Source of the DNA: Candidatus Parvarchaeota archaeon
Lineage (GTDB): Archaea; Nanobdellota; Nanobdellia; Parvarchaeales; Parvarchaeaceae
NCBI GenBank assembly: GCA_025920305.1
Contig: JAPDMB010000001.1
Location: forward strand, 538-64,537
Reading direction: 5' to 3'
DNA length: 64,000 nt
This document shows, one piece after another, positions 2,288 through 51,390 of this stretch. Position 1 is the first letter of the stretch, and each line of letters starts with the position of its first letter. The position numbers and the translations under genes were made by a program. A model generated the notes under the pieces. It was not told where the DNA came from and ran no database searches. It worked only from the letters and a program-made list of their open reading frames with translations.

Positions 2288-3460
2288 ATGTCTTATAGAT
2301 TTATTCATACCGGTGACACGCATATAGGCAACGTATACAAAGATAGCCAGAGAAACAATGACATTAAAGATGCGTTTATACAGCTTATAGACTACGCAAT
2401 AGATTCAAAGGTCGACTTCATAGTTCATTCCGGTGATCTATTCGACAGCGGTACACCAGATATAAACGATCTGCTGTTCATGACAGACCAGCTGCACAGG
2501 CTTAAAGACAATAATATAAAGATCTTCACTGTGCCAGGCTCTCACGATGTAGGCATAGGAGAGGAGCTTAGCATCGTTGATCTATTCGATAGGAATGGGC
2601 TCCTTGTAAATCTTAATTCAAGCAGATACATGAGGATGGAAGGCGGTAAGGTATACCTGAAAGGCGCTACATACCTAAACGCCTTCATAGCAGGGGTAAG
2701 GGGGAAAAGAAGCCGCGTAGAGGACGAGATATTCAAAGTGTTAAGCGTGGAGATGGATCAGAATGCATGGATTAAGATATTCGTCTTCCACCATACCATC
2801 TCTTCTCTAGGCGAAGCATTCAGCGATTTGGATACTGACAGCCTGCCCAAAGGCTTTGATTACTACGCAGCCGGTCATTGGCATGGCCATAAAGACAATA
2901 TTCAATATGGTAGTGGGATAATACAATACCCAGGCTCCACGGAGTACTGTGATGAGAAGGAGATGGTTGACAACCCAAACAGGGGGTTCTACGTAGTGGA
3001 GTACTCTGAGGGCGGTATAACTAGTGTGGAGTATCACCTCCTGAAGACGAGGGACAAGGACATAATACGTATAAACGCAGATGGTAAGGATTCTAAATCC
3101 ATAAAAACTGAGATCGTCTCGAATCTAAAGGAAAATGACGGTAAGATGCTGGTTATACTTGTAAACGGTAAACTCAATGGCAAGAGATCTGAGTTGGATA
3201 CGCAGGATATAAAATTACAGGCTAAGTCACTTGGATATTCATATGTCAGCATAAATACCTCTAAGATGCTAGATTCTGATTCGGACACTATAACTTTGAA
3301 GAGCGAGAACATAACGGATATAGAAGATGAATTTTTGTCGGCAAAAGGCTATAATAAAAAAGAGATAGCCCTCGCTCATACAATAATAGATATGATCGAG
3401 GAAGGCAAGGATCTAAGTGGCGTGAAATCCAAGGTTTTGGAGTTATATGATAATCAATGA
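2288..3460 (+). CDS. mre11: DNA double-strand break repair nuclease Mre11
   Basis: Calcineurin-like phosphoesterase motifs HTGDTHIG, HSGDLFD and GSHD. Immediately followed by rad50 with overlapping stop/start. Confidence 0.9.
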   Translation: MSYRFIHTGDTHIGNVYKDSQRNNDIKDAFIQLIDYAIDSKVDFIVHSGDLFDSGTPDINDLLFMTDQLHRLKDNNIKIFTVPGSHDVGIGEELSIVDLFDRNGLLVNLNSSRYMRMEGGKVYLKGATYLNAFIAGVRGKRSRVEDEIFKVLSVEMDQNAWIKIFVFHHTISSLGEAFSDLDTDSLPKGFDYYAAGHWHGHKDNIQYGSGIIQYPGSTEYCDEKEMVDNPNRGFYVVEYSEGGITSVEYHLLKTRDKDIIRINADGKDSKSIKTEIVSNLKENDGKMLVILVNGKLNGKRSELDTQDIKLQAKSLGYSYVSINTSKMLDSDSDTITLKSENITDIEDEFLSAKGYNKKEIALAHTIIDMIEEGKDLSGVKSKVLELYDNQ

Positions 3461-5837
3461 AATCAGCCTAAAAAACATCAGAAGTCACGTCGAATCAGAG
3501 ATATCGTTTAGCCCCGGGATAAATGTGATAGTGGGCAATACTGGGAGCGGAAAGTCGTCCATACTTATGAGCATAGAGTATGCACTGTTTGGAAAGATAG
3601 GAGAAGGTACAAATGAGGGCAAGATGCTTTTAAGGAGGGGCGAAAACAGCGGAAGAATATCTTTAGTGTTTACTGAAAACGGTAGGGAAATAAGAGTCAT
3701 GCGGGGGCTTAAGCGCGTAAAAGATGCCGTTAGGAACGATGACTCTATGAATAGCATATCCGTAGACGGCAGGGAAGTCGATCTGCAGAACAGATCATCC
3801 GACATAAGCACCTTTGTATCGAAAAGTCTCTCAATGAAAAGTGATCCTTTGAAAACGTTTGAGGCGGTCGTATACATAAAGCAGGATGAGCTTAAGGGTT
3901 TAGTCTTTGATACAACGCAGAAAAAACAAGAATACATAGACGACACTTTGCAAGTAGGGAAGTATGCCCTTGTGTACGATGGTATGCGGTCCCTGATGAT
4001 AGACTTACAGAATGAAGAAGCCCTCCTAAAGAAAGAGATAGAATTCTCCGTGGGAGACAAGGAGATAATAGAGACAAAAAGCAAGCTGCTGGATATAGAG
4101 AAGAATATTAAGAAGCTGTCTGACGACATAAACCTCCTAGAATCGAAGAGTGATGAGCTTGCGAAGGCCAGGAGAGCCTATGAGGAGAAGCTGGAAGCCG
4201 AGAAGGATCTGCAGCTGAAGTTCAATGTCTTGCGATCGTTGATAGATAAAGAAGCTAAAGAATTGGAGAAGCTGAAAGAAAGCGTGAAGGATCTACAGGT
4301 TGAGAGGGATCTTCTGTACGACAGAGTAAAGGACATGAAGCAAGAGGATGAGGGTGAACTCTTAAATAAACTTCATGAAATTGATAAGCTGGCAGACGCA
4401 TGCAATAAAGAGAAGGATATCCGGATAAAAGAGATGCATGAGTTGCAGATGAGGATAAGTGTACTTAATGATAGAAAGGGGAAAATAGAGGAAGAACTTA
4501 AAAAATACATAAAATATGTGGATGAAATCAGTAAATTAATCAGTGAGAAAAAAGCGGCTCTCGATGAAGCGAAAGTCCTTTTAAGTGATGATGAGATAAA
4601 CGCAAAAATCGAGCAGATAAAGGAGGTGATATCGGATATCACAGCGGACATGGAGAGGTCTATATCTAGCGGCATCTGCGTGTTCTGTGGATCTAGTATA
4701 ATAGACAGGCAGCACGTGGAGAAAGAATTCAAAGGGAGAATAAACGGATATAATCAGACCATATCGAAATTACAAGGGTTGAAATCGAATATATCAAAGA
4801 TCTCCAAGGCCAGTTTAGAGAAGGAGCTATTCTCTTTGGAGAAGGACATGTTGAATGCAAAGACCACCATAGATAATTTAACTAAAGAGTCGGATTCCAT
4901 ACATACAAGCGATCTAAGTTCTCAGCTTGAGAAATTTGAGACGGAACTGGACAAGCTGAAGCAGGAGCAGACAAGCCTTTCCGATGAGAAGCTAGAGATA
5001 GCCAGAAAATTGGAGGAGATATCAAAATCAAGGGCATTGTTCATGAAGCTGTCATCCATCGATTCAGAGATAGAACAGCGGTTGAAATTGATAGGAGATA
5101 AGGAGTCTAACATCGAAAAGAATAGATCAGATTTGAAGGACCTTAATTTCGATCCATCAATCTACGCAGGGCTTATGGATGAACTGAAACTCGTAGATGA
5201 AGATTATAATAAAGTTATATCGCAGCTAGCCGAGAGCAGAAAGGAGAAAGCGATGCTGGAAGAGAGGAGATCTGAGGAGAATGCCAGGCTTGAGGAAATA
5301 AAGAGCAAGCTAGAGACGAAGGAGAAGGCAAATTCGAAGCTGGTAAAACTCGAAAAGGCGATTAAAATGCTGTCTAATCTCCGAGAGGATATAAGGAGCA
5401 TAAGGGAATACGTGAGAAACAGGTTCATAGGCGATTTCAGGTCCTTATTTCAGACAAAATTCTACGAGCTTAGGAATGAGACTGACTACGCCGTAGACAT
5501 AGACAACAACTATAATGTTATAATAAAAAGCGACGGCGAAGTCTTTGAGTCAAAAAGCCTCTCCGGAGGGGAAAAAACCATAGTGGCTTTGGCTTATAGG
5601 ATCTCTCTGTCCTCCATAGCTGCGAAGTTGGGCGGGATAAGCCGTAACGAGATATTCATAATGGACGAACCGACGTCCGGCCTAGATAAAAAAGATGTCT
5701 CCTCTTTAGCCGACTCAATAACTAAGATAACTGGCGTGAATCAGATAATAATCGTAACGCACGATGATAACCTTAAGAATATAGCCGACAACATGATACG
5801 TGTTGAGAAAAAGGAAGGCGTTTCCGTGGTGATTTGA
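3447..5837 (+). CDS. rad50: DNA repair ATPase Rad50
   Basis: Walker A GNTGSGKSS. Long heptad coiled coil with a central CxxC zinc hook (CVFCGS). ABC signature LSGGEKTIVALAYRISL and Walker B IFIMDEPTSGLD. Confidence 0.92.
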   Translation: MIINEISLKNIRSHVESEISFSPGINVIVGNTGSGKSSILMSIEYALFGKIGEGTNEGKMLLRRGENSGRISLVFTENGREIRVMRGLKRVKDAVRNDDSMNSISVDGREVDLQNRSSDISTFVSKSLSMKSDPLKTFEAVVYIKQDELKGLVFDTTQKKQEYIDDTLQVGKYALVYDGMRSLMIDLQNEEALLKKEIEFSVGDKEIIETKSKLLDIEKNIKKLSDDINLLESKSDELAKARRAYEEKLEAEKDLQLKFNVLRSLIDKEAKELEKLKESVKDLQVERDLLYDRVKDMKQEDEGELLNKLHEIDKLADACNKEKDIRIKEMHELQMRISVLNDRKGKIEEELKKYIKYVDEISKLISEKKAALDEAKVLLSDDEINAKIEQIKEVISDITADMERSISSGICVFCGSSIIDRQHVEKEFKGRINGYNQTISKLQGLKSNISKISKASLEKELFSLEKDMLNAKTTIDNLTKESDSIHTSDLSSQLEKFETELDKLKQEQTSLSDEKLEIARKLEEISKSRALFMKLSSIDSEIEQRLKLIGDKESNIEKNRSDLKDLNFDPSIYAGLMDELKLVDEDYNKVISQLAESRKEKAMLEERRSEENARLEEIKSKLETKEKANSKLVKLEKAIKMLSNLREDIRSIREYVRNRFIGDFRSLFQTKFYELRNETDYAVDIDNNYNVIIKSDGEVFESKSLSGGEKTIVALAYRISLSSIAAKLGGISRNEIFIMDEPTSGLDKKDVSSLADSITKITGVNQIIIVTHDDNLKNIADNMIRVEKKEGVSVVI

Positions 5838-11907: not shown

Positions 11908-12010
11908 GCTCTAATATATCTTTGTCTCGTATTAAAGTTTTAGAGTATTTTCCCCTGATTTTATATGTGCTCACAAACTTTTTTCGAACGGAAAAGTATT
12001 TATACTCTAA

Positions 12011-12030
12011 TTACATATAATTATATGTAA
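12011..12030. promoter_or_regulatory. perfect 20-bp palindrome TTACATATAATTATATGTAA, putative operator, 2 nt upstream of the ribbon-helix-helix gene start
   Basis: Read directly from the sequence: the two 10-nt halves are exact reverse complements. It lies between a TATA-like element (tttatac, about 12000) and the ATG at 12033. Confidence 0.6.
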
Positions 12031-12032
12031 TT

Positions 12033-12269
12033 ATGGAAAGGAAAGGCGCGGGATATAATAGCAGCAAAAAATTCACAACGGTTTCTCTGCCGAAGCCATT
12101 GGCAGTCAAGCTCAATAAGATAATAAGTGGGACAGGGTTTACCTCCTTATCCAGCTTTGTTGAGTATGTTATGAGGGAGATAGTTGTGAACGAAATGGAA
12201 GGAAGTAAAGGTAAGAACGTAGACGTTTCAGACGTCGAAGAAAAACTAAGGAGGTTGGGATATCTATGA
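12033..12269 (+). CDS. ribbon-helix-helix (CopG/MetJ-like) DNA-binding protein with a CysD-like C-terminal tail
   Basis: The N-terminus TTVSLPKPLAVKLNKII...SFVEYVMREI fits a beta-strand plus two-helix ribbon-helix-helix. It ends ...EEKLRRLGYL. The ATGA overlap with the next gene indicates translational coupling. Confidence 0.6.
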   Translation: MERKGAGYNSSKKFTTVSLPKPLAVKLNKIISGTGFTSLSSFVEYVMREIVVNEMEGSKGKNVDVSDVEEKLRRLGYL

Positions 12270-13102
12270 ATTTGGAAAAAAACAGGGATTCAATGCATCC
12301 GAATAGAATAGAGGGCGGGTTATCGCTGGATGCTAAGGAAAGTATAGCCAAGATAGTGATAGAAGATGCCCTTAAGAGATTCAAGAGGCCTACTGTGGTC
12401 TGGAGCGCAGGTAAGGATAGTACCGTCGTGCTGGATCTAGTATTGAAGGTGTGCAAAAAAATTGGAGTGAGTAATCCCCCTGCTTTATTTATAGATCACG
12501 GCCAGCATTATGATGAGACGATGAAGATGCTTTCGGACGTAAGCAACAGATGGAAGTTCAAATTGATATATGCCAGGAACGAGAACGTGCTTAAAAACGT
12601 TGATAAAAATAACAAAATTAAGGTAAAATCTTTGGATAAGAAGAACCAGGAGGAGGTAAGTCGTATAGGTTTTAAGGGCGAGGAGTTTGAATATGGGTTG
12701 GAAACAGAGGTAGGCAATCATCTTCTTAAGACGGTGGCGATGAATGATGCTATAGAAAAATACCGGTTCGATGCCCTGTTCACAGGGATCAGATGGGATG
12801 AAAATGAAGCAAGATCCAGGGAGGTATTTATAAGCCCAAGAGCATATCCAGAGCATGTACGTGTTCAGCCGATACTCCCATTTACCGAAAGAAATGTCTG
12901 GGAGTATATATTTAAGTATAACTTACCGGTGCATCCCCTCTATAAACAAGGCTATCGTTCGATAGACGGCAAATTCGATTCAAAGAAGACAAGCGATTTA
13001 CCGGCCTGGGAGCAGGATCTTGAGAATACAAGGGAGAGGGCTGGCAGGTCCCAGGACAAAGAAGGTGTGATGGAGAAGCTTAGGCTTTTCGGTTACATGT
13101 GA
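12266..13102 (+). CDS. CysD-like PP-loop ATP pyrophosphatase (PAPS reductase / sulfate adenylyltransferase subunit 2 family), no catalytic Cys
   Basis: PP-loop SAGKDSTVVLDL, FIDHGQHYDET and YNLPVHPLYKQGYRSI. The C-terminus RERAGRSQDKEGVMEKLRLFGYM aligns with the E. coli CysD C-terminus ([24 protein letters not shown]). The Cys of the CysH ECGLH motif is absent. Confidence 0.7.
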   Translation: MNLEKNRDSMHPNRIEGGLSLDAKESIAKIVIEDALKRFKRPTVVWSAGKDSTVVLDLVLKVCKKIGVSNPPALFIDHGQHYDETMKMLSDVSNRWKFKLIYARNENVLKNVDKNNKIKVKSLDKKNQEEVSRIGFKGEEFEYGLETEVGNHLLKTVAMNDAIEKYRFDALFTGIRWDENEARSREVFISPRAYPEHVRVQPILPFTERNVWEYIFKYNLPVHPLYKQGYRSIDGKFDSKKTSDLPAWEQDLENTRERAGRSQDKEGVMEKLRLFGYM

Positions 13103-13160: not shown

Positions 13161-13259
13161 GGCTCGATAGCTTAGCTCGGTTAGAGCACTGCTCTTATAT
13201 AAGCATGCTCCAATATTTAGGTAAAGCAGGGGTCGCGAGTTCAAATCTCGCTCGAGCCA
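13161..13259 (+). tRNA. tRNA-Ile (anticodon UAU) with a 24-nt intron at the canonical 37/38 position (intron 13200..13223)
   Basis: Cloverleaf assembled by hand. Acceptor GGCTCGA/TCGAGCC, discriminator A. D-stem GCTT/GAGC with a GG loop. Anticodon stem CTGCT/AGCAG. T-arm GCGAG-TTCAAAT-CTCGC. No encoded CCA. Anticodon loop nt 32-37 read CTTATA, then the intron. Bulge-helix-bulge: CTTA (32-35) pairs with intron TAGG, flanked by 3-nt bulges TAT and TAA. Confidence 0.7.
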
Positions 13260-14875: not shown

Positions 14876-15400
14876 TCAGCTCTTTATCGACGCCTCTTTA
14901 AGTTCTTTGATAGCCCCGTCTTTATTAGAAAAACCCTTGAATCTTACAAATTTGCCTTTTTCAAGTTCTTTCATATGCTCAAAAAAGTGCTTTATTTTAT
15001 CTTTTAAATACTGCGGTATATCATCCATGGTCTTTATCATCGATGATGCAGGGTCTACTTTGTCTACGGGTACAGCGATTATCTTGTTGTCCGTACCAGC
15101 TTCATCTTCCATTAGCAAGAGCCCGATCGCCCTGCATTTTACAATGGTATTGGATGATATAGAAGCGGAGGATATGACCAAGACATCTAGTGGATCCCCG
15201 TCTTTGCTCTTCGTGTTAAGCGCAAAGCCATAATTTGTAGGGTATACCATGGATGTGAACAGTATCCTATCTAGTTTTATGTTTTCTAGCTCCTCATCAT
15301 ATTCATACTTCATGTTGCTCCCCGCAGGTATCTCTATGAAGGTATAAAAGGTCTCAGGGAAGTCATCAGTTTGCTTATTGAATTCCATCAGACATATCAT
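14876..15400 (-). CDS. ppa: inorganic pyrophosphatase (family I)
   Basis: EIPAGSNMKYEYDEE...DRILFTSMVYPTNYGFALNTKSKDGDPLDVLVIS is the soluble PPase signature. Confidence 0.92.
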   Translation of the reverse strand: MICLMEFNKQTDDFPETFYTFIEIPAGSNMKYEYDEELENIKLDRILFTSMVYPTNYGFALNTKSKDGDPLDVLVISSASISSNTIVKCRAIGLLLMEDEAGTDNKIIAVPVDKVDPASSMIKTMDDIPQYLKDKIKHFFEHMKELEKGKFVRFKGFSNKDGAIKELKEASIKS

Positions 15401-50213: not shown

Positions 50214-51390
50214 AGATATAATCGTTGATCTCGTAGGTAATTTTGCAGACGGTAAGACTACCCTTGTAAAGGCTCTGACAAACGAATCAGCGCTTAGACA
50301 CAGCGAAGAGAAGAAGAGGGGGATAACCATACGTCTTGGCTATGCGCACTTCAAGCTTTTCAAATGCAATAGCTGTGGCAAGTTCAGCAGGTTTGAAAGA
50401 TGCGAGTTTTGCGGAGGCAGCACCGAATTGTTCCGCAGGGTCTCAATAATAGATTCTCCTGGACATAGGATGCTGATGACCACTATGCTCAGTGGCATAG
50501 GCTTGGCAGATGGAGCGATTATGGTCATCTCAGCGATAAATCCATGCCCCCAGCCTCAGACTGAGGAGCACATGGAAGCCATAAATCTGTTGGGTATAAA
50601 GAACTTAGTCGTTGCCCAAACTAAAGTGGACTTAGCTGGTGAGTCAAAAGCTAAGGAGAATTACAATCAGATAAGAGCTTTCTTGGAGAAGAATGGATTC
50701 TCAAATACGAATATAATACCGACTTTTGCCAATCAAAATATAAACATCCAAGAGATAATCCAGGAGATCGGTAAATTTGATATCTCTAACAGAGACGTCA
50801 GCGGGAAGCCTAAGATGCAGGTTATAAGGAGCTTCGATGTGAATAAGCCAGGCACGAGGATAGAGGATCTGAAAGGCGGTGTTTTGGGAGGCGGGCTCGT
50901 TTCCGGTAGGCTTTCCGTAGGCGATGAAGTGGTCTTAACTCCAAATGTTTCGGCAGGCAGTAAATTCAAGTCTATAAGAACAAAGATCATGTACATACAG
51001 AGCGAATTCGGTGAAGAAAAATCCGCTACAAGGGGGCTGTCCATCGGAGTCCTAACCAAATTAGACCCATCTATAGTAAGGAGAGACGCCTTAGTTGGGA
51101 GTTTGATCACCGACGCCGACAACTTGCCAATTCTTGATAATAAGCTGCGGATGACATATGATCCTATACCAGGCAAGACCATATTTGATAAACCTCTTCA
51201 AAAGGGGGAGAGCATACTTATAAACGTTCTGTCTTCCAGAGCGATCGGGATAATACAGGACATCTCTAAGGGAGGGATATCGCTGGTTTTAGGCGAGGTT
51301 TCCATACCTTTCTTTACGGGCGATAAGGTGATAGTATCCAGAAAGGTAAAGAATGCATGGACATTGGCTGGCTCTGGCATAATTTTATGA
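50206..51390 (+). CDS. translation initiation factor aIF2 gamma subunit
   Basis: G domain (GNFADGKTTL, DSPGH, QTKVD). Zinc ribbon CNSCGKFSRFERCEFCGG inserted in the G domain. Domains II/III follow. Confidence 0.9.
   Translation: MVEDIIVDLVGNFADGKTTLVKALTNESALRHSEEKKRGITIRLGYAHFKLFKCNSCGKFSRFERCEFCGGSTELFRRVSIIDSPGHRMLMTTMLSGIGLADGAIMVISAINPCPQPQTEEHMEAINLLGIKNLVVAQTKVDLAGESKAKENYNQIRAFLEKNGFSNTNIIPTFANQNINIQEIIQEIGKFDISNRDVSGKPKMQVIRSFDVNKPGTRIEDLKGGVLGGGLVSGRLSVGDEVVLTPNVSAGSKFKSIRTKIMYIQSEFGEEKSATRGLSIGVLTKLDPSIVRRDALVGSLITDADNLPILDNKLRMTYDPIPGKTIFDKPLQKGESILINVLSSRAIGIIQDISKGGISLVLGEVSIPFFTGDKVIVSRKVKNAWTLAGSGIIL

Follow-up and report, generated by a model that had tools for sequence, protein, structure and literature searches.

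A putative RHH regulator and a CysD-like enzyme with similar C-terminal tails behind a predicted TAATTA operator in a Parvarchaeota archaeon

An overlapping gene pair and its predicted operator

We describe a pair of overlapping genes from a Parvarchaeota (ARMAN-type DPANN) archaeon, located in a 64-kb stretch of DNA that was analysed as a whole and is called the window below. The upstream gene (12033 to 12269, + strand) encodes a putative ribbon-helix-helix (RHH) repressor of 78 amino acids that ends in EEKLRRLGYL. The downstream gene (12266 to 13102, + strand) encodes a CysD-like ATP pyrophosphatase of the PAPS_reduct fold, which has 278 amino acids and ends in MEKLRLFGYM. Both proteins end in E-K-L-R-x-h-G-Y-h (h, hydrophobic), and they are the only 2 of the 404 stop-to-stop segments of the window that carry this tail motif. 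The pair is preceded by a predicted operator made of three TAATTA boxes. The system represented by this locus is real, conserved and partly new.

The two genes, already pointed out in an earlier reading of this DNA (the sequence-only reading), are kept together in 23 of the 24 Parvarchaeota-type loci that have enough upstream sequence. In the window, the reading frames overlap through an ATGA, and a Shine-Dalgarno-like GGAGG (12250 to 12254, + strand) lies within the RHH coding sequence, 11 nucleotides 5' of the enzyme ATG, where it presumably functions as such. The overlap had been taken as a sign of translational coupling; it is present here, but its exact form is not conserved, and the distance between the RHH and enzyme genes varies from -14 to +10 nucleotides in orthologues.

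Upstream of the RHH gene, we found a putative archaeal promoter composed of a B recognition element (BRE)-like AAAAG and then a TATA box, TATTTATA (11992 to 12004, + strand). The block "aaagtatttatac" is kept at a constant distance from the TAATTA boxes in about 23 orthologous loci, and its agreement with the BRE and TATA consensus leads us to infer that it is the BRE plus TATA box. The TATA box begins 36 nucleotides 5' of the RHH ATG, which suggests that the mRNA is probably leaderless or nearly so, with a predicted start a few nucleotides 5' of the ATG, and that the boxes cover the initiation region.

The three boxes of the predicted operator occupy positions 12008-12013, 12018-12023 and 12028-12033 in a 10-bp phase. 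In the window, the array reads as a perfect palindrome of 26 bp, TAATTACATATAATTATATGTAATTA (12008-12033), which ends on the A of the RHH ATG. This palindrome is the longest in the window, and an arm of 13 was reached in 0 of 200 Markov-1 simulations; the three-box pattern occurs once in the window, compared with 0.02 expected occurrences. The sequence-only reading had reported a perfect palindrome of 20 bp near the start. The element is indeed perfect and operator-like, but it is longer than was stated, and what is conserved is the array of TAATTA boxes. In orthologous loci, TAATTA-N4-TAATTA-N4-TAATTA follows the BRE/TATA block, and the ATG is fused to the last box. The spacers between boxes are non-complementary in most orthologues, and the perfect palindrome is therefore a chance feature of this locus, in which boxes recur every 10 bp.

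The association between the boxes and the RHH genes extends beyond these orthologues. TAATTA-N4-TAATTA (with at most one mismatch) was found in 42 of 46 distinct regions upstream of RHH genes, against a background of 0.18 sites per kb over the 589 kb of all loci, and its only sites in the window are at the RHH promoter. The same pattern is located 5' of distant family members in loci L036, L046, L049, L050, L057, L079, L085 and L088, whose downstream genes are different, and the arrays at family promoters contain two to four boxes. These observations support the prediction that members of the RHH family recognise TAATTA boxes in the promoters of their own operons, in front of sulfate genes.

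A different situation was encountered in high-GC soil metagenome loci (L069, L072-L078 and L081), which contain RHH-Sat pairs with bacterial-looking -10 elements (TATAAT). In these loci, the RHH protein ends in KDKLRRLGYLD, and the TAATTA boxes are missing or altered. The family may therefore reach beyond AT-rich archaea, with a different operator.

A family of RHH proteins associated with sulfate genes

The RHH protein begins with a beta-strand region (KFTTVSLP), followed by helices at residues 21-31 and 39-58, a disordered linker (59-64), a tail helix (65-74) and the terminal LGYL. The two central helices follow the conserved KFTTVSLP in an AlphaFold2 (AF2) monomer model, and a monomer model cannot form the strand pair. 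In searches with the protein, Pfam gave nothing better than E = 0.23 and no NCBIfam model passed its cut-off; the only matches are weak ones to the N terminus of NikR (E = 0.006, 17 bits versus a cut-off of 119). Homologues are annotated as RHH/CopG in their source records. The sequence-only reading had put forward the upstream protein as an RHH-type regulator, and this is probably correct.

A search with the family profile returned more than 2,191 matches (word-indexed), with labels that include Heimdallarchaeaceae, Thermoplasmatota and Hydrothermarchaeota, and at E <= 1e-3 the family comprises 1,445 representative clusters. It is not matched by any Pfam or NCBIfam model. A typical member is 77 amino acids long and ends in ...FSKEDEEKVKERLRALGYLD, and the LGY tail is present in at least 122 of 148 family representatives, the rest being mostly fragments or minor variants. 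Judging from these sequences, the family is large, unnamed and mostly archaeal.

A sulfate gene adjoins the RHH gene in 40 of the 42 metagenome loci that were recovered with an RHH alignment. The scan patterns used for this set encoded the tail itself, and the set is thus biased to tail-bearing members, not towards particular neighbours. Directly downstream of the RHH gene are Sat (ATP-sulfurylase plus PUA_2, 1.8e-95) in about 24 loci, CysD or a CysD-like protein in about nine, TauE in about five, and an ABC (ATP-binding cassette) binding protein of the sulfate/phosphate type in one. Complete operons have the order RHH-Sat-DHH-APS kinase-sulfotransferase (APS, adenosine 5'-phosphosulfate) or RHH-CysD-CysN-(unknown)-APS kinase-sulfotransferase. 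As far as gene order indicates, RHH genes of this family stand first in operons for sulfate activation and sulfation, and the CysD-like gene of the window holds the slot behind the RHH gene that is otherwise taken by Sat or CysD.

Several unusual relatives were noted. Long RHH forms of about 203 to 214 amino acids (P0248, P0289, P0303, P0314, P0317, L054 2072-2698 and L083 2063-2704) begin at the N terminus with a second RHH-like segment (RTTIQISD..RKRLKVLA), continue with a middle domain of unknown type (about 90 amino acids) and close with the usual RHH and its tail. In P0243, the RHH occurs in three repeats, and one of them bears an internal LGYL. Also, the CysD gene behind a family RHH in locus L062 (2683-4716, + strand) is interrupted by an intein; in its 677-amino-acid product, the PAPS_reduct domain is split by Hint/Intein_splicing and LAGLIDADG_3 domains.

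A CysD-like enzyme and its sulfatase-like partners

The enzyme is 100% identical to an entry labelled "phosphoadenosine phosphosulfate reductase family protein" [Candidatus Parvarchaeota archaeon], and it matches the Pfam model PAPS_reduct at 2.6e-36. Its best NCBIfam match is CysD, although it lies below all CysD cut-offs (105.1 bits versus 195 for NF003587, 83.4 versus 396.6 for TIGR02039, and 82.5 versus 413 for NF009214). Control CysD proteins from loci L088 (435 and 403 bits), L055 (343) and L036 (305) show that canonical archaeal CysD proteins score 305-435 bits on the same model, and the window enzyme therefore belongs to a separate subfamily. It is about 27-31% identical both to Escherichia coli CysD and to an archaeal (L036-type) CysD-like protein. 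Scores against CysH models are also below their cut-offs (84.6 bits versus 154 and 74.7 versus 165), and the enzyme ends in GYM and lacks the C-terminal catalytic-Cys motif ECG[LI]H of CysH. No Cys is conserved among the homologues, many of which have none.

The sequence-only reading had called the protein a CysD-like PP-loop enzyme that is cysteine-less and has no adjacent CysN, Sat or CysC gene. The profile scores agree with the first description, the second holds in the functional sense (the single Cys of the window enzyme is not conserved), and none of the three genes was found anywhere in the 64-kb window. The same reading had left the substrate open and had considered thiolation or phosphorothioation. 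The genomic context points instead to sulfate, and a role in thiolation or phosphorothioation was rejected because the enzyme scores 9.3 bits against a DndC cut-off of 290 and lacks a conserved Cys. A PP-loop defence role was likewise set aside; PADLOC gives only a generic BrxP-domain match of 38 bits over 72 residues.

The enzyme has an intact PP-loop. This loop, SAGKDS (residues 47-52; 12404 to 12421, + strand), a motif that binds the alpha and beta phosphates of ATP, aligns to the N terminus of CysD, and S47, G49, K50, D51 and S52 are invariant in 60 homologues. Equally invariant in this set are E257, R258, G260, R261, G276, Y277 and M278 of the C-terminal segment ERAGRSQDKEGVMEKLRLFGYM (13034 to 13099, + strand), which comprises an ERxGR motif (ERAGR in the window) and a putative mobile helix-GYM lid. 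ERxGR aligns with the APS-reductase-like structure 4bwv and with CysD (1zun). The AF2 model has an overall predicted local distance difference test (pLDDT) value of 89, but its last 28 residues, a helix at 263-274 and then GYM, have values of 54-69, and this C-terminal part reads as a mobile tail in the model. Foldseek matches to the model include APS and PAPS (3'-phosphoadenosine 5'-phosphosulfate) reductases, the PAPS domain of FAD synthase, CysD (1zun) and TtuA-TtuB (5gha). Foldseek lists 204 residues for 1zun_A, compared with 325 in the chain sequence, and much of that chain, probably including the tail, appears to be unmodelled.

Close homologues of the enzyme outside the Parvarchaeota clade are 59-74% identical to it and lack the RHH gene. 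In 5 of 5 such cases that were looked up, the enzyme gene is adjoined by a gene for a Sulfatase/Phosphodiest protein of the alkaline phosphatase superfamily (436-456 amino acids). This sulfatase-like gene is immediately downstream in four of the five, often with overlapping stop and start codons, and one gene away in the fifth (L033-L035). Glycosyltransferase genes surround these pairs, once together with DsrE and TauE. In addition, a sulfatase-like gene is divergently adjacent in the DPANN locus L020, and the triad of RHH, CysD-like and alkaline-phosphatase-type genes is present in L045, L036 and L050.

In Halobacterium salinarum, Agl30 and Agl31 were established as N-glycan sulfotransferases of the alkaline phosphatase superfamily by deletion and heterologous expression, and their sulfate donor is not discussed in that report (PMC11980604). 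Given this finding, activation of sulfate followed by its transfer to a glycan would be the most economical reading of the gene pair. The sulfatase-like partner may conceivably be linked to Haloferax Agl7 (HVO_2046, "contributes to sulfation"). The partners in L030 (4807-6177) and L045 (3561-4889) contain T-P-T-S-H-M-S-I-F-S-G-L-Y-P-R-E-H-G, which we take to be a nucleophile motif of the NPP (nucleotide pyrophosphatase/phosphodiesterase) type. This motif presumably differs from the sulfatase motif C/S-x-P-x-R, a difference that bears on whether sulfuryl or nucleotidyl groups are transferred.

Some relatives have neither type of neighbour: the Halobium and Fraserbacteria loci (L025-L027) contain no adjoining RHH or sulfatase-like gene. 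In L027, Halobium salinum carries tandem CysD-like paralogues (2818-3789 and 3899-4879, + strand; 323 and 326 amino acids), both of which end in MERLRDLGYM, and neither an RHH nor a sulfatase-like gene is present within 4 kb of them.

A CysN partner gene was sought, and none was found. No CysN gene adjoins the enzyme gene in any of 29 related loci, and a tblastn search of the window with two archaeal CysN queries yielded a single weak match (31% over 103 amino acids, 50434-50730). Similarly, no gene for Sat, CysC, TauE or for a sulfatase-like, CysN-type or sulfotransferase protein was found in the window. Taken together, the profile scores and gene contexts suggest that the enzyme is a distinct CysN-less relative of CysD that most likely makes APS from ATP and sulfate.

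The other genes near the pair are housekeeping genes, and none of them is sulfur-related. Those upstream are for the thermosome, LSm, L37e and a Trp/Tyr-type tRNA synthetase, and those downstream are for an intron-containing tRNA, GDPD, inorganic pyrophosphatase and CTP synthase. The pyrophosphatase gene (14876-15400, - strand; Pfam 1.2e-51) lies 1.8 kb downstream of the enzyme gene. Its product may help to pull APS formation forward, and its position may also be coincidence. The tRNA (13161-13259, + strand) is 60 nucleotides 3' of the enzyme gene and was detected by Rfam (58.5 bits, E = 1.6e-12), whereas ARAGORN gave no call for it. An insert of about 25 nucleotides follows the anticodon loop CUUAUA, and the anticodon reads UAU (Ile).

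The shared tail and possible modes of regulation

The likeness of the RHH and enzyme tails is real. In the enzyme, ...ERAGRSQDKEG[MV]ME[KR]LRx[FLM]GYM is kept across 120 homologues from Parvarchaeota, Thermoplasmata, a "Nitrososphaerota" metagenome-assembled genome, Halobium and Fraserbacteria, with G, Y and M each at 100%. The bacterial CysD tail SMEEKKRQGY (Pseudomonas syringae CysD, 1zun_A) aligns to it. In the RHH protein, the tail is DVEEKLRRLGYL (12231 to 12266, + strand), and [DE]x[KR]LR[RK]LGY[LMI] is present in 18 of 18 close homologues, despite linkers of differing length and sequence. With GY as the anchor, the two family profiles match at 11 of 15 positions: D at -12, E at -10, a hydrophobic residue at -8, an acidic residue at -6, K/R at -5, L at -4, R at -3, a hydrophobic residue at -1, then G, Y and M/L. 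A position-specific scoring matrix (PSSM) built from the last 15 residues of the enzyme gives +10 for the window RHH protein and up to +28 for other RHH proteins, compared with a mean of -46, a standard deviation of 7 and a maximum of -8 among 2,638 unrelated C termini. In the four lineages with CysN-less CysD-like operons, every RHH protein ends exactly at GY[LMI].

The AF2 models depict the tail of both proteins as a tethered helix-GYh peptide, at low to moderate confidence. The C-terminal segment of PAPS and APS reductases bears the catalytic Cys and closes over the substrate, and by homology the tail would correspond to this mobile segment. One further tail carrier was observed in locus L065 (40-1047, - strand), 1.4 kb from a family RHH gene. 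This 335-amino-acid protein has a weak Sulfatase/PglZ match and ends in ...KEKLRALGYA, and among 2,805 open reading frame segments it is the sole carrier that is neither RHH nor CysD-like.

The resemblance between the tails had been pointed out in the sequence-only reading; it persists in orthologues, and the enzyme does not profile as a canonical CysD, so that the refuting outcome named in that reading did not occur. That reading also suggested that both proteins dock to the same partner. The tails are indeed alike, but the RHH tail is family-wide, occurring in Sat, CysDN and TauE operons, and therefore a partner specific to one enzyme cannot be the general explanation. According to a secondary source, CysN contacts CysD where EF-Tu contacts aminoacyl-tRNA. 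Docking to CysN is disfavoured as the role of the tail, given that CysN-less enzymes keep it invariant and that Sat-type RHH proteins keep it as well.

Our preferred interpretation, to which we assign roughly even chances, is that the two genes form an autoregulated operon, that the enzyme is a sulfate adenylyltransferase which works without CysN and supplies glycan sulfation, and that a lid peptide has been reused as a signal input. RHH dimers would bind next to one another on TAATTA boxes spaced by one turn of the helix. Because these boxes take up the space from the TATA box to the start codon, their occupancy would block initiation of transcription of the operon by its own product. The enzyme would make APS without CysN, with pyrophosphatase and the prompt consumption of APS presumably drawing the reaction forward. 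Its product would presumably be passed, in related genomes, to the adjacent sulfatase-like protein, giving a short pathway for surface-glycan sulfation. The tail, consisting of an acidic linker, an amphipathic helix (E-[KR]-L-R-x-h) and then G-Y-h, would be the mobile C-terminal lid of the CysD/CysH superfamily. In the least certain step, the RHH family would carry a copy of this lid on a flexible tether as a signal-input element. At this locus, the RHH tail would most likely dock in the lid/sulfonucleotide cleft of the enzyme or bind the same sulfonucleotide directly, and repression would then follow the state of sulfate activation. Entry of a partner's C terminus into an active site has a precedent within the PP-loop superfamily in TtuA-TtuB (5gha).

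A more specific and bolder version of this proposal seems unlikely to us. In it, the whole, mostly archaeal RHH family has captured a CysD lid that acts as a tethered pseudo-lid, either occupying the sulfonucleotide cleft of the enzyme or competing for APS, and the enzyme and its sulfatase-like partner form a two-enzyme, PAPS-independent route from sulfate through APS to sulfated glycan. If this is true, the catalytic state of the enzyme would set transcription of the sulfate-activation operon, and the two-enzyme route would supply the unknown sulfate-donor step of archaeal glycan sulfation.

Several points weigh against the preferred interpretation. The substrate of the enzyme is assigned from context, all CysD cut-offs having failed. 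ATP sulfurylation is strongly unfavourable, and canonical CysD requires CysN-GTP; the 64-kb window is without a CysN, APS kinase or sulfatase-like gene. The same RHH tail is found in Sat-type operons with no PAPS_reduct-fold enzyme nearby, and it is internal in the triple-RHH protein P0243; these two facts therefore argue against docking to the neighbouring enzyme as a family-wide role. A tail of 12 to 17 amino acids on a variable, disordered linker, as modelled, is also a poor stand-alone ligand site. Finally, the 42-locus set cannot show that the tail is universal, a shortcoming that is addressed by the survey of 1,445 clusters and 148 representatives.

Two other explanations for the tail were considered. 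In a scheme like that of MetJ, the tail and RHH core would bind APS, PAPS, 3'-phosphoadenosine 5'-phosphate (PAP) or sulfate as a corepressor or inducer without contacting the enzyme, and a common ligand of the two peptides would be the reason why the tail resembles the CysD lid. This is the sole explanation that fits a near-invariant tail across RHH proteins that head non-homologous Sat, CysDN, CysD-like, TauE and ABC genes. It also gains from the beta-alphaA-alphaB-alphaC layout and tandem boxes, which recall MetJ, and from the basic or aromatic nature of the invariant tail residues (K/R, R and Y). However, the linker between tail and core is variable in length and modelled at low confidence, and no pocket is evident, so we consider direct sensing possible but, on balance, not probable. 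Alternatively, the tail might be an oligomerisation helix that bridges RHH dimers on adjacent boxes, its likeness to CysD being convergent or a relic of gene-fragment capture. Many RHH repressors, such as Arc, MetJ and omega, bind cooperatively, and the 10-bp phase of the boxes, their arrays of two to four, and the ability of the tail to sit internally in a tandem-RHH protein are all consistent with bridging. Yet a likeness at 11 of 15 positions is far outside the background, chance is hard to invoke when two often-adjacent families of the same pathway carry the tail, and the weakly sulfatase-like L065 protein carries it too, which together make this explanation doubtful.

Other alternatives concern the enzyme. 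It could be a different adenylyltransferase or ATP pyrophosphatase, such as a flavin mononucleotide (FMN) adenylyltransferase, or a transferase that uses APS or PAPS with an alkaline-phosphatase-type partner, with the RHH protein as a local regulator. The failed CysD and CysH cut-offs, the presence of FAD synthase PAPS domains among the top fold matches, and the lack in the window of a CysN to drive an unfavourable reaction would be explained in this way. Even so, we regard it as improbable: the CysD-type PP-loop, ERxGR and CysD tail are all retained, the gene is in the Sat/CysD operon slot behind the same RHH family, and its relatives neighbour sulfatase-like, TauE and DsrE genes. The FAD synthase matches cover only residues ~158-239 (E 1e-3 to 1e-6), and FMN adenylyltransferase was ranked low because these matches are weak and incomplete and the genomic context is sulfate-related throughout. 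A type II toxin-antitoxin-like pair, in which the tail of an RHH antitoxin neutralises a toxic enzyme, would account for an RHH with a disordered linker and C-terminal helix, a promoter operator and overlapping genes. This possibility was already disfavoured and is very improbable, because the enzyme is widespread without RHH (in Thermoplasmata and other lineages) in glycan biosynthesis clusters, the RHH family also accompanies Sat, CysDN and transporters (TauE), the PADLOC match is to a generic BrxP domain only, and the gene pair is vertically conserved beside housekeeping genes.

To our knowledge, almost nothing is known about how sulfate activation is regulated in archaea. This work defines a large, unnamed and mostly archaeal family of regulators, and it predicts both an operator (TAATTA in 10-bp phase) and a regulon (sulfate uptake, activation and sulfation). 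A regulator that copies the lid peptide of an enzyme superfamily would, if the interpretation is correct, represent an unusual coupling of transcription to an enzyme or its product. Also, the pairs of stand-alone CysD-like enzymes and sulfatase-like proteins are candidates for the step that makes the sulfate donor for archaeal glycan sulfation, for which the Agl30 and Agl31 sulfotransferases have been found only recently, with the donor undefined.

Parts of this arrangement have counterparts in known systems. The sequence-only reading knew of no described system with this architecture, but a "putative copG" ahead of sat-pApase-NPP-cysC was mentioned in 2021 for Thermococcales and other archaea (Pyrococcus yayanosii and four more; PMC8268124). 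That report calls the copG gene a putative regulator only and describes no operator, family definition or tail. In our searches of the literature, which brought up only PMC8268124 and PMC11980604, no account was found of a family-wide operator, of a tail common with CysD, or of the pairing of CysD-like and sulfatase-like genes. The tail mimicry and this pairing appear to be undescribed. The copG-sat cluster and the present system have in common that an operon for sulfate activation starts with a small CopG/RHH gene and that genes for TauE and for alkaline-phosphatase-superfamily proteins occur in the vicinity, and loci L085 and L086 show the copG-sat-pApase-NPP-cysC type of layout. Here, however, a stand-alone CysD-like enzyme replaces Sat and CysC. 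The P. yayanosii copG product (PYCH_17520) is a possible member of our RHH family.

Compared with CysD itself (1zun; NF003587/TIGR02039), the enzyme shares the fold, the PP-loop SxGKDS, the H/D-x-G and RxDE blocks, ERxGR, and the helix-GY[FM] tail, but it falls below the cut-offs and has no CysN partner, and its relatives are paired with a sulfatase-like protein and not with CysN/CysC. Agl30 and Agl31 share a superfamily with the products of the sulfatase-like genes beside enzyme homologues in glycosyltransferase clusters, and the window contains no such gene. MetJ is an RHH protein with an extra C-terminal helix, whose dimer arrays bind tandem short boxes to control a sulfur pathway, as is proposed for the regulator described here, and an adenosine-containing effector is possibly another common feature; no sequence relationship was detected, and the 6-bp boxes with a 10-bp repeat differ from the 8-bp metboxes of MetJ. 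The proposed regulator is also reminiscent of antitoxins of the RelB/ParD/CcdA type, in which an RHH dimer is joined through a disordered linker to a short C-terminal helix for binding of the downstream product, with autoregulation at a promoter operator; a sequence relationship to these antitoxins was not detected either. In the system described here, by contrast, the downstream product is a metabolic enzyme that is also found without RHH, and the RHH protein also pairs with unrelated enzymes.

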